From Escherichia coli O127:H6 str. E2348/69 (GTDB lineage Bacteria; Pseudomonadota; Gammaproteobacteria; Enterobacterales; Enterobacteriaceae), in NCBI RefSeq assembly GCF_000026545.1, contig NC_011601.1: 64,000 nt of DNA; one strand, given 5' to 3'. The first letter of the stretch is position 1; every line of letters starts with the position of its first letter. Positions 9,001 to 57,000 of the stretch are shown in pieces. Position numbers: made by a program.

Positions 9001-12000
9001 GCATCAGACTGCTTTTCCCTTTCAGATATCCCATAAAGCCGGATACGCTCATTTTGGGCGGGATCTCCACAAGCATATGGATATGATCTGCACAGCATTC
9101 AGCTTCCAGAATCCGTACACTTTTCCACTCACACAGCTTTCTCAAAATACAGCCTATTGCTCTACGCTTCTCTCTGTAGAACACCTGTCTTCGGTATTTT
9201 GGCGCAAATACTATGTGATATTTACAGTTCCATCGGGTGTGCGCTAAGCTCTTTTCGTTCCCCATTGGGACCCCCTTTTGATTTCTTGTTTGACACTTGC
9301 AGTTGCCAGACCGCAAGGTGTTTTAACAAATCAAAAGGGGTTTTAATAACTGGCTCAAAGCTGAAAGCTTTCCGGAACCCCCAGCCTAGCTCTGTCTCTT
9401 ATACACAAATCCCCACCCGGGGATTTGTGATGTCTGTCAGTCTGCTTTAGGGGGACTCTTTCCATCCGGTAGTTTCCTTCCTCCCCGGCAGCGATTTTTT
9501 GAACTTTTTCCTCACCTGTTGATCTTCTCTTATATTTCATTTTCTTCGGGTCTGTTATGGTACTTTCTGATTGTTATTCATGGGCTAACGAGCAGTTTGG
9601 ACATGCCCGTCTCGGTGATCCGCGTCGTACACGACGCCTTGTGTCACTGGCCTCTTCTCTCGCTCAGCATGCAGGTCTTTCTATTGTGAAATCATCCCAG
9701 TCCACTGCTCAGGTTGAAGGTGCGTACCGCCTGATACGTAACCCGTCTGTGTCCCCGCAAGCCATTGCCGAAGCCGGATTTACCGCCACTGTAAGGGCAT
9801 GTGAGGCTCATCCGCTGCTCCTCGCGCTGGAAGACACCACCACCATTAACTTCAGTCACAGTACGGCATCTGATGACCTGGGGAATACCACCACTAACCC
9901 GAAGACGCGCGGGCTGCTGGCTCACTCTGTCCTGATGTACGCCCCCGACAGCGCCCTGCCAGTCGGTCTTATCGAACAGCAGCGCTGGAGTCGTGCCACG
10001 GACACCTACGGTGTTAAGCACCAGCGAAAAGAACGTCCCTATGAAGAAAAAGAAAGTTACCGCTGGCAGCAGGCTTCGGAGCGCATGGCCGAACGGCTGG
10101 GGGAGATACAGAAACGGGTAATCACTGTCTGTGACCGGGAAGCGGATATCTGGCATTACCTGCATTATAAAGTCAGCCACGGGCAGCGCTTCGTGGTGCG
10201 TGCAGCACAGAATCGCCGGCTGGAAGAAGCACCCGGCAAGCTCTTCGAACTGCCGGAAGTCCTGGCAACCGCGGGAAGCCACACGCTGAATGTGATGCAA
10301 AAAGGCGGGCGGGCAGCCCGCCAGGCCCGGATGTTCATCAGTTACAGCGAAGTCAGCATAAAAAATCCCGACAACAGCGGCCAGGCGCTCCCGCTCACGT
10401 ATGTCTGTTGCCGGGAGCAGGCAGAGGACGGCGCCTGCTGGCATCTGCTGACGTCAGAAAAAGTGGCGAGTGCCGCCGATGCGCGACGTATCGTCAGCCA
10501 TTACGAGCGACGCTGGCTGATAGAGGAATACCACAAGGCGTGGAAAAGTGGTGGTACATGTGTGGAATCGCTGCGAATGCAGACCCGGGATAACCTCGAG
10601 CGCATGGTGGTTATCAAGGCGTTTATCGCGGTGCGGGTGCTGGGCCTGCGGCAGGGCGGTATCAGTGAAGAAACACAAAATGACAGCTGTGAGAAAATAC
10701 TGACGCCGACAGAGTGGAAACTGCTGTGGGTTAAGCTGGAAGGAAAACCGCTTCCGTCACAGATGCCGACACTGAAATGGGCCTGTCTGAAACTGGCGAA
10801 ACTGGGGCGATGGCATGACAGCAAACGCACCGGTCGCCCCGGTTGGGTAGTCATGTGGGATGGCTGGTTCAGACTTCAGGATATGGTTGAGGGTTACCTG
10901 GTGATGAAGTCTCTTGATCAGGAGATCTGATCAAGAGACAGAGCCTAGCTGGGGGTTTTCTGTGCACAATAAACCGCCAGATGTTTTCTGGCGGTTTGTC
11001 TCAAATTAACGTCGTGTAGCCGCTTTCATCGGTTGTACAAAAGCTTTCAGTGCCGCCAGCATTTTCTCTGGCTCATTAATATGTTGCTCGATGATTTTAA
11101 CGATGGCCGAACCAGAAATCGCGCCTGCAGCTCCTGCATCAATCGCTGCTTTTACCTGGTCCGGAGCGGAAATACCAAATCCCTGCAATGGAGGTGCAGC
11201 GTTGTACTCTTTCAGCTTTGCAACCAGATGATTGAGGGGTAACGCGGCGCGGTTTTCTGCGCCGGTCACGCCCGCACGCGACAGCAAATAGGTGTAACCA
11301 CGACCGTAAGAGGCTATCTGGCGCAGCAAATCATCGTCGGCATTCGGTGGGCAAATAAAGATAGGTGCGACATTATGACGCAACGCGGCCTGGCGGAAGG
11401 GCGCGGACTCTTCCACGGGCACATCGGCAACCAGCACCGAATCGACGCCGACTTTCTCGCACTCGGCATAAAACTCATCAATGCCTTTGTTAAACACCAG
11501 GTTGGCATACATCAAAAGGCCGATGGGAATGGTCGGGTGCTTCTGGCGAATGAGTGCCAGCACCTCAAAGCACTGCGCCGGGGTTACTCCCGCCGCAAAA
11601 GCACGCAGTGTGGCGTTTTGAATCGTCGGGCCATCCGCCAGTGGGTCGGAGAAGGGGATGCCTAACTCCAGCGCGTCAGCACCGGCTTCAATTAGCGTAT
11701 CGATAATTTTCAACGACTGCTCAATGCCCGGATCACCGAGGGTGACGAAAGGAACGAATGCGCCTTCTTTGCGCTCCTTCAACTGGGCAAACAGAGATTC
11801 GTAGCGTTCCATCAGATTTCCCCTCGTGCTTTCAAAATATCGTGAACGGTGAAGATGTCTTTATCGCCGCGACCGGAAAGGTTAACCACCAGTAGCTGCT
11901 CTTTTTCCGGATTTTCGCGCATCATTTTCAGCGCATGGGCCAGGGCGTGGGAGGATTCCAGCGCCGGGATGATCCCTTCATGCAGGCAAAGCGTTTTAAA

Positions 12001-54000: not shown

Positions 54001-57000
54001 TCTTATGCGCATGGGTACAATTGCCCATTCCGGCACTGGTGGCATTATTTTTCACCATCGCATTTTGTAGCGGCATCGGCACTGTTGGCGGGGCAGAGGC
54101 TATGAGTGCAGTAGGGACGCAGGAATCTGGAACGGCGTCTGCGTTGATGGGGATGAGCATGTTTGTCTTCGGCGGTATAGCCGCGCCATTGTCGGGAATT
54201 GGCGGAGAAACACTGTTAAAAATGAGTCTGGCAATTACGGTGTGTTATACGCTGGCATTGCTGGTTGCTCTCACCAGAATCGACAATCAAAAGTAATGAA
54301 CACCTCATCCTGAGCTGTCTCTTGATCAGATCTCCTGATCAAGAGACTTCATCACCAGGTAACCCTCAACCATATCCTGAAGTCTGAACCAGCCATCCCA
54401 CATGACTACCCAACCGGGGCGACCGGTGCGTTTGCTGTCATGCCATCGCCCCAGTTTCGCCAGTTTCAGACAGGCCCATTTCAGTGTCGGCATCTGTGAC
54501 GGAAGCGGTTTTCCTTCCAGCTTAACCCACAGCAGTTTCCACTCTGTCGGCGTCAGTATTTTCTCACAGCTGTCATTTTGTGTTTCTTCACTGATACCGC
54601 CCTGCCGCAGGCCCAGCACCCGCACCGCGATAAACGCCTTGATAACCACCATGCGCTCGAGGTTATCCCGGGTCTGCATTCGCAGCGATTCCACACATGT
54701 ACCACCACTTTTCCACGCCTTGTGGTATTCCTCTATCAGCCAGCGTCGCTCGTAATGGCTGACGATACGTCGCGCATCGGCGGCACTCGCCACTTTTTCT
54801 GACGTCAGCAGATGCCAGCAGGCGCCGTCCTCTGCCTGCTCCCGGCAACAGACATACGTGAGCGGGAGCGCCTGGCCGCTGTTGTCGGGATTTTTTATGC
54901 TGACTTCGCTGTAACTGATGAACATCCGGGCCTGGCGGGCTGCCCGCCCGCCTTTTTGCATCACATTCAGCGTGTGGCTTCCCGCGGTTGCCAGGACTTC
55001 CGGCAGTTCGAAGAGCTTGCCGGGTGCTTCTTCCAGCCGGCGATTCTGTGCTGCACGCACCACGAAGCGCTGCCCGTGGCTGACTTTATAATGCAGGTAA
55101 TGCCAGATATCCGCTTCCCGGTCACAGACAGTGATTACCCGTTTCTGTATCTCCCCCAGCCGTTCGGCCATGCGCTCCGAAGCCTGCTGCCAGCGGTAAC
55201 TTTCTTTTTCTTCATAGGGACGTTCTTTTCGCTGGTGCTTAACACCGTAGGTGTCCGTGGCACGACTCCAGCGCTGCTGTTCGATAAGACCGACTGGCAG
55301 GGCGCTGTCGGGGGCGTACATCAGGACAGAGTGAGCCAGCAGCCCGCGCGTCTTCGGGTTAGTGGTGGTATTCCCCAGGTCATCAGATGCCGTACTGTGA
55401 CTGAAGTTAATGGTGGTGGTGTCTTCCAGCGCGAGGAGCAGCGGATGAGCCTCACATGCCCTTACAGTGGCGGTAAATCCGGCTTCGGCAATGGCTTGCG
55501 GGGACACAGACGGGTTACGTATCAGGCGGTACGCACCTTCAACCTGAGCAGTGGACTGGGATGATTTCACAATAGAAAGACCTGCATGCTGAGCGAGAGA
55601 AGAGGCCAGTGACACAAGGCGTCGTGTACGACGCGGATCACCGAGACGGGCATGTCCAAACTGCTCGTTAGCCCATGAATAACAATCAGAAAGTACCATA
55701 ACAGACCCGAAGAAAATGAAATATAAGAGAAGATCAACAGGTGAGGAAAAAGTTCAAAAAATCGCTGCCGGGGAGGAAGGAAACTACCGGATGGAAAGAG
55801 TCCCCCTAAAGCAGACTGACAGACATCACAAATCCCCGGGTGGGGATTTGTGTATAAGAGACAGATCCTGAGGGGGGCCTGTCAGGATGAGGTGCAAAAC
55901 ACTAACGGTCCTTACGCCACGCATCCGCCGTCAATGCCTCGCCAAAATGACCGGCGATCAGCCGTTTGGTGAGTTCATGCAGCGGCGATGCCAGCACATC
56001 TGCGGTGCTGCCTCGCTCGACAACCTCGCCCTGATGCATCACCAGCACCTGGTCGCTAATGTGCTTCATCATTCCGATATGCTGGGTAACATAAATATAC
56101 GAAATGCCCTGTTTTTCCTGTAACTCCAGCATCAGATTAATCAACTGCGAACGCATCGACATATCCAGTGAGGCGAGGGCTTCATCGGCAATAATGACTT
56201 TTGGGCGCAATATCAGCGCGCGCGCCAGACCCAGACGCTGTTTTTGCCCGGGTGCCAACATGTGCGGATAGTAACTGACGTGATCCGGTAGCAGCCCAAC
56301 CATACGCATCGTTTCAATAATCTGTTTGCGACGCTGTTCCGGTTCCAGGTCGGTGTTCAGGCGCAGTGGAAAATCCAGAATTTGCGAGATACGTTGACGG
56401 GGATTCAACGAGGTCGAAGGATCCTGAAAAATCATGCGAATACGCTGACTGCGGAAGGAATAATCGCCAAAATGCAGCGGATGATCGTCAATCAATAACT
56501 CGCCGCTGGTCGGTTCTATCATTCCCGCCAGCATTTTTGCCAGCGTGGATTTACCCGAACCATTCTCGCCGATAATCGCCAGTGTCTGGCCTTCACGTAG
56601 CGTAAAGCTCAAGGGTTTTACCGCTTCTACGGTCTGACGACGAAACCAGCCGGTCCGGTAGCGGAACGTTTTACTTAAATTGCGCACTTCAAGTAGCGTT
56701 TCGATCATCTCACTCTTTCTCCATGTTCAGTGGGAAATGACAGGCATAGAGATGATTTTTCGCCCCCGTCAAACGTGGCGTCACAATGCATTCTCGTTGT
56801 GCATACGGGCAACGTGGCCCCAGACGACAACCAATCGGTAACTGTTCCAGCAGCGGGATAGCGCCGGGCAGCGTATTGAGGCGACTTTTATGCGGCATCG
56901 CGCTGCCGAAGTCTGGTATCGCGCGGATCAGCGCCTGGGTATAAGGATGGTGTGGCATCGTCACCAACTCCTTACTCGGCGCGGTTTCCACCGTTTGACC

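Follow-up and report, generated by a model that had tools for sequence, protein, structure and literature searches.

In Tn5, two copies of the insertion sequence (IS) IS50—IS50L and IS50R—lie in inverted orientation with their outside ends facing outward and their inside ends facing inward, and for composites of this type (Tn10 and Tn5, built on IS10 and IS50), the frequency of transposition drops steeply with length. The target consensus of Tn5 is weak (A-GNTYWRANC-T), and IS1397 and ISKpn1 target the loops of repetitive extragenic palindromes. Chromosomal inversions by homologous recombination between flanking IS copies are known as well, for example, among the IS-mediated rearrangements of Escherichia coli evolution experiments. 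IS231A and IS4-subgroup elements have conserved target arms (PMC2266710). All of these systems bear on the stretch of DNA discussed here, a 64,000-nucleotide window (contig NC_011601.1, positions counted from the first letter of the window) from the chromosome of enteropathogenic E. coli (EPEC) O127:H6 strain E2348/69, in which two identical, inverted copies of an IS50-like element, ISEc13, enclose a block of housekeeping genes.

Has such a pair made a transposon out of a piece of chromosome, or did two insertion sequences simply happen to land back to back? We hold with confidence that ISEc13 inserted here twice, separately and recently, by cut-and-paste, and that the Tn5-like bracket is incidental in a copy-rich genome, with no composite-transposon signature. 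On this view, ISEc13 has multiplied in the EPEC E2348/69 lineage until it stands at about 30 copies, and each of the two went into the kind of site that the element prefers, a short palindrome that has a C-run at one edge and a G-run at the other. The site of copy 1 is the hairpin that ends an IS200C element beside trpA, duplicated there over 9 bp, and that of copy 2 is a hairpin between a major facilitator superfamily (MFS) efflux gene and sapF, duplicated over 8 bp; a pair can be oriented in four ways, and that this one is inverted with its outside ends outward would be due to chance.

The Element and Its Likeness to IS50

A repeat search and a self-BLAST of the window find a single long inverted pair, 9391–10941 and 54315–55865 (1551 nt, 100% complementary), in which the base beyond the 1550-bp element is a flanking T shared by chance. 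Copy 1 lies at 9392–10941 on the plus strand and copy 2 at 54315–55864 on the minus strand, each 1550 bp and 100% identical to the other. Judged by sequence, both are ISEc13, a curated IS50-subgroup member of the IS4 family already annotated in E2348/69, because RefSeq annotates the window copies under that name; both are 100% nucleotide-identical to elements of E2348/69 and of other E. coli that bear the name “IS4-like element ISEc13 family transposase” (WP_000244358.1), and as members of ISEc13 as named by RefSeq and the NCBI Prokaryotic Genome Annotation Pipeline (PGAP), they differ from it in nothing.

The element runs from CTGTCTCTTATACACAAAT to AGATCTGATCAAGAGACAG, with 5′-CT termini and IS50-like 19-bp ends. 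We compared these ends with an IS50L that lies beside aph(3′)-IIa sequences on a Tn5-bearing Salmonella plasmid (locus L025); the first Tn5 match (L024) was dropped as a reference for its truncated outside end. The left terminal 19 bp (CTGTCTCTTATACACAAAT, 9392–9410, plus strand) agree with the outside end of IS50L at 17 of 19 positions, and the right terminal 19 bp (CTGTCTCTTGATCAGATCT, 10923–10941, minus strand) agree with the IS50 inside end at all 19, with two GATC (Dam) sites within them and a third just inside. In both copies, the outside-end-like termini point outward and the inside ends inward. Two structures at these ends deserve a word of their own: a hairpin immediately inside the left end (9405–9432, ACAAATCCCC-ACCC-GGGGATTTGT; −22.1 kcal/mol, z −5.0) and, at the right end (10909–10941), a palindrome (13 bp, three GATC sites) made up of the inside end and an inverted inside-end-like copy of it.

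The transposase gene, which reads from the outside end toward the inside end, is an intact, single open reading frame of 457 codons (9557–10930, plus strand, in copy 1; 54326–55699, minus strand, in copy 2). Its product has the DNA-binding, catalytic, and dimerization domains of the Tn5 enzyme in one chain (Tnp_DNA_bind, PF14706; DDE_Tnp_1, PF01609; Dimer_Tnp_Tn5, PF02281), scores 514 bits against the IS4 model NF033590 of NCBIfam (cut-off 160), and matches Tn5 transposase structures with E = 6e-84. D93, D193, and E323 align to the Tn5 catalytic residues D97, D188, and E326, and Y316, R319, E323, and K330 align to Y319, R322, E326, and K333 of the Tn5 YREK motif, defined as Y-(2)-R-(3)-E-(6)-K (PMC2266710). 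Like IS50, then, ISEc13 has one transposase, of the DDE type, in which the DDE and YREK residues are conserved, and its target duplication is about 9 bp, roughly one helical turn. The two nevertheless differ in a good deal: the ISEc13 transposase is only 39% identical to that of IS50 and, by our reading of the alignment, lacks a methionine at the position of Met56, where the Tn5 inhibitor starts; there is no meaningful nucleotide similarity between ISEc13 and IS50L (L025) outside the ends; the duplications of ISEc13 are more often 8 bp (14 sites) than 9 bp (6 sites); a strong motif in the flanking arms stands against the weak consensus of Tn5; and ISEc13 forms no composite transposon here. The 19-bp inside end is the same in both elements despite the distance between their transposases.

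The first-pass annotation of this window, made from the sequence alone, had placed two identical IS50-like elements at exactly these coordinates, in the IS50L/IS50R geometry of Tn5, around DNA running from trpA to an efflux cluster, and all of this stands (the RefSeq annotation agrees on the extent of the bracket). It had proposed aligning the transposase with that of Tn5, and the alignment came out Tn5-like; it had also named what would undo its reading. Two of these things are not found: the copies do not differ on exact alignment, and the terminal repeats are the true ends. The third, many copies in the genome, is another matter, to which we return below.

Two Target Duplications and a Native Chromosome

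If one looks for the history of the pair, the flanks are the place to look. Copy 1 is bounded by a 9-bp target duplication, AGCCTAGCT, at 9383–9391 and 10942–10950, which is present once in an intact IS200C at 42198–42206. Copy 2 is bounded by an 8-bp duplication, ATCCTGAG, at 54307–54314 and 55865–55872, as the alignment with an empty site in Es_ST80 (L003) makes clear; there, the uninterrupted sequence has ATCCTGAG once, within a hairpin that has a 13-bp stem and lies between the MFS gene and sapF. Each copy, that is, has its own matched duplication, and none is common to the outer flanks, from which it follows that the block never arrived or moved as a unit; the two duplications also differ, and so, the copies inserted independently. 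The earlier reading had drawn both conclusions, which the empty sites now bear out, and it was right that the duplications differ; it missed that the duplication of copy 2 is 8 bp, not 9, and it missed the IS200C in which copy 1 sits.

That host (IS200C copy A, minus strand, tnpA at 8807–9265) occupies 8698–9391, and its last ~33 bp resume after copy 1, at 10942 to about 10974. The intact copy B (41513–42230, minus strand, right boundary approximate to within ~10 bp), which lies inside the bracket, supplies the empty site for copy 1: in the self-BLAST, the 694 bp of 8698–9391 are 100% identical to 41513–42206, and 10942–10978 matches 42198–42234. ISEc13 went into the loop of the hairpin (−22.1 kcal/mol) with which IS200C ends, and copy A has probably been crippled by the element nested within it. 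Copies A and B are identical and in direct orientation, 32.8 kb apart, with copy B between pdeR and rnb, where it holds a vacant, perfect, top-scoring ISEc13 target.

The DNA between the two elements tells the same story. The bracketed segment (43,373 bp, 10942–54314; RefSeq annotation of NZ_LT827011.1) carries trpABCDE, rnm-yciO-yciQ, rluB, cobO, sohB, topA, cysB, acnA, and ribA, followed by pgpB, lapAB, pyrF, osmB, pdeR, IS200C, rnb, fabI, and a cluster of TetR, resistance–nodulation–division (RND), outer-membrane factor (OMF), and MFS efflux genes. To the left, a truncated ompW and IS200C precede ISEc13 and trpABCDE; to the right, the efflux cluster is followed by ISEc13, sapFDCBA, and psp. 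Gene order inside and around the bracket is what we take to be that of the K-12 backbone, and a native backbone in K-12 order means that the block neither came in as a unit nor lies inverted. The window is 100% identical to NZ_LT827011.1 1431214–1495213, and the same DNA is found in two more assemblies of E2348/69. Across 5426 complete E. coli genomes, both junctions are confined to these three assemblies, at 100% identity and in the same arrangement in each; the three assemblies represent two independent stocks, EPEC1 being an engineered derivative of another (variety 2).

How Surprising Is the Bracket?

Counted as BLAST “places,” the whole element is found 27–30 times per E2348/69 chromosome and 2 times on the plasmid pMAR2; queries specific to the left end give 27–29 and those specific to the right end 27–30. 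Nearly all copies are identical, and the load is the highest among the complete E. coli genomes, where the median for genomes with any match is 1 and the next-richest among the matches listed has ~10. ISEc13 is evidently an active, multicopy insertion sequence, and the spread of counts among the three E2348/69 assemblies (30, 29, and 27) suggests either recent or ongoing activity or loss along with deleted regions.

For 29 copies placed and oriented at random in 4.85 Mb, our model expects 1.6 adjacent, outward-facing pairs within 43.4 kb; one such pair or more arises with a probability of 0.81 when calculated analytically and 0.84 when simulated. A bracket that chance would produce about eight times in ten carries none of the significance that its Tn5-like look had implied, and the first-pass annotation had itself said beforehand that many copies would make the bracketing incidental. 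This is what 27–30 chromosomal copies do.

We also surveyed 164 kb around the pair (the window and 50 kb on each side). An upstream neighbor, in the ompW prophage 37 kb upstream of copy 1, lies on the minus strand at window-equivalent positions −28900 to −27351 (L026 21100–22649) and has 2 mismatches (protein variant WP_000244363.1); a downstream neighbor, 19 kb downstream of copy 2, lies on the plus strand at window-equivalent 75205–76754 (L027 11205–12754), is identical to the window copies, and interrupts ycjT. Four copies thus fall within 106 kb, in the orientations −, +, −, +. Clustering or local hopping was considered as an explanation and rejected, as such a group has P = 0.42 under random placement.

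Two points weigh against our interpretation, and it is fair to list them together. The chance estimate presumes random placement, with orientations known for the 4 copies near the window and 3 elsewhere in E2348/69, and a few of the BLAST places may be remnants, as is one on pMAR2.

The pMAR2 copies have a small puzzle of their own. On this EAF (EPEC adherence factor) plasmid, the copy between hok and finO (L016, NZ_CP059841.1 15027–16576) has no target duplication (CTGCAAGGA|IS|GTCATACAG), and the plasmid carries no reciprocal partner for it, the second place there being a degraded IS4 remnant. An adjacent deletion could account for the missing duplication, as could an exchange with a chromosomal copy.

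A Target Rule

How can a chromosome put up with some 30 copies of an insertion sequence? The places where they land may offer an answer. Besides the sites of the window, we collected ten from CP148541.1, seven usable ones from other E. coli records, and the two window neighbors (window 9383–9391 and 54307–54314; L004–L013, L017–L023, L026, and L027). The pattern CCCC(T)-N8/9-(A)GGGG fits all 20 independent insertions, every duplication (8 bp in 14 cases and 9 bp in 6) having (A)CCCC(T/C) on one side and (A/G)GGGG(T) on the other. With sites scored by the number of C at −5 to −2 plus the number of G at +2 to +5 (maximum 8), 18 of the 18 formally scored sites reach at least 5, as against 2.1% of background positions; scores of 7–8 occur at only about a dozen loci in the IS-free window, and the IS200C hairpin, in two copies of which one is occupied, is among the top of them. 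The pattern itself is solid.

Many of the sites are terminator hairpins between convergent genes, and both window targets fold as strong hairpins (−22.1 and −27.4 kcal/mol, z −3.5 and −5.6 for copies 1 and 2). The agp/yccJ hairpin has been struck twice independently, once with a 9-bp and once with an 8-bp duplication (L006 and L023), and the sib/ibs hairpins are occupied in both orientations (L020 and L021). We considered an orientation bias relative to the upstream gene, whose end lies ~25–30 bp before the left end of the element at many loci, and rejected it, because the genes on the two sides converge at most sites, so that an element would look the same in either orientation, and because sib/ibs is hit both ways. 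A symmetric target with no orientation bias agrees with our treating the geometry of the pair as one of four.

From all of this, we incline, with some reserve, to the view that ISEc13 picks its targets by a strong symmetric rule, apparently undescribed, and typically in terminator stem-loops or other palindromes, which would explain how some 30 copies are tolerated with little disruption of genes. A dimeric synaptic complex of the Tn5 type might capture such a target symmetrically, recognizing the arms outside the staggered cuts; the feature recognized may be either the base sequence of the DNA or a hairpin or cruciform into which it folds. Like other insertion sequences that are specific for target arms or palindromes, ISEc13 would read a symmetric target outside the duplicated bases and so, would settle harmlessly in intergenic palindromes, but its motif, C-run and G-run arms 9–11 bp apart, belongs to an element of the IS50 subgroup. 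The review of the IS4 family and its supplements mention neither ISEc13 nor any such motif for that subgroup (PMC2266710), and a literature search on ISEc13, the IS elements of E2348/69, and terminator targeting in the IS4 family returned only resistome lists and unrelated papers; ISfinder may record the rule. If the rule is true, the transposase of ISEc13 could be a naturally site-selective relative of the Tn5 tagmentation enzyme.

Other Histories for the Pair

The alternative that survives best concerns not how the pair arose but what it does: the segment between the copies might flip by homologous recombination, so that E2348/69 populations hold both isomers. The pair certainly offers the substrate, 1550 bp of perfect inverted homology, and another genome shows what the outcome looks like. 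In CP148541.1, two inverted ISEc13 copies lie at a distance of 60 kb, and their 8-bp duplications are not matched within either copy but are reciprocal between the two, CTCCCCAA|IS|CGAACCAG at one (L010, CP148541.1 2302317–2309690) and CGAACCAG|IS|CTCCCCAA at the other (L011, CP148541.1 2362794–2370167), and the junctions are chimeric: yjgR-IS-cycA and fklB-IS-lptG, where K-12 has fklB-cycA and lptG-yjgR and E2348/69 has fklB-IS-cycA. Barring misassembly across the repeat, which is possible in principle, these sequences indicate a 59-kb inversion by homologous recombination between ISEc13 copies. It is an ISEc13 case of the IS-flanked inversions known from elsewhere, with which our window shares long, perfect inverted copies around tens of kilobases; the window differs in that its duplications are matched and its gene order is native.

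The CP148541.1 case makes it reasonable to call the window pair competent for inversion, as had been proposed from the sequence of the window, and the support is indirect. A search for an IS-bounded invertible segment in both orientations found a single one, the parental, with matched duplications, in all three E2348/69 assemblies, although these are consensus assemblies, in which rare isomers would be invisible. Matched duplications and native order mean that no inversion has occurred or become fixed in the window, and we take the pair to be only a passive substrate for RecA-dependent inversion; that E2348/69 populations already hold both isomers seems to us possible but rather doubtful.

Far less can be said for the pair and its intervening DNA as a functional Tn5-like composite that has transposed 46 kb of housekeeping genes or does so regularly. 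Two inverted, identical copies with an intact transposase and with transposition-proficient outside ends facing outward are indeed there, and this is what had suggested mobilization in the first place. A single duplication shared by the outer ends is not, the outer flanks being AGCCTAGCT on the left and ATCCTGAG on the right; nor, in the complete E. coli genomes, is the block inserted relative to related genomes or found at more than one location. The junctions occur at one locus in E2348/69 assemblies only, and the interior and both exteriors are native backbone. Composites of the IS10/IS50 type pay a penalty for length, and excision would take out the essential genes topA, fabI, ribA, and lapB, a loss that is lethal after cut-and-paste unless the gap is repaired from the sister chromosome. 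We infer that transposition of the 46-kb unit from outside end to outside end is formally possible and practically negligible, and we find no evidence for the composite transposition of housekeeping genes that the first-pass annotation had held out in principle; a composite here is highly improbable.

Least probable of all is an assembly artefact, a collapsed or duplicated repeat, for although a repeat copied from a consensus would look just this identical over 1550 bp, the flanks of each copy are unique, each has a proper duplication in agreement with a known empty site, and three assemblies deposited separately show both junctions at 100% identity.

The Neighborhood

Some features of the surrounding DNA are worth recording. 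The efflux cluster (46804–54296, between fabI and sapF) consists of a TetR regulator, an RND adaptor, an RND pump, an outer-membrane factor, and an MFS transporter; K-12 presumably has only ycjD at this position. yciW (44267–45393) is annotated as frameshifted.

The first 8700 nucleotides of the window belong to a prophage that sits in ompW, of which they are the right end; the far end of the prophage has an intact ompW (L026 4791–5429), and a 3′ fragment of the gene remains at window 8545–8685. This prophage end is low in G+C (39–44%). Its genes for type III effectors are nleA, nleH1-2, and nleF, with a fragment of espO, and it also contains decayed fragments of an integrase, IS256, and IS3 and a C-terminal fragment of a tail fiber in three copies (196–403, 1041–1199, and 4546–4685).

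What the Pair Means

The feature that caught the eye here is ordinary and already annotated, and the only parts that might merit more attention are the target rule, the example of an inversion, and the exceptional copy number in E2348/69. The bracket is a chance pairing like several others of this multicopy element, and the trp-topA-fabI region is not mobile on its account. What it does mark is a place where stocks of E2348/69 could differ by a 43-kb inversion, and because neighboring copies of ISEc13 lie in direct orientation, stocks could differ by deletions and duplications as well, a point relevant to anyone who compares laboratory lineages of this strain. Beyond the strain, the wider use lies in a target rule within the Tn5 family, in a natural 59-kb inversion that ISEc13 would have mediated, and in the largest expansion of ISEc13 among the 5426 genomes.

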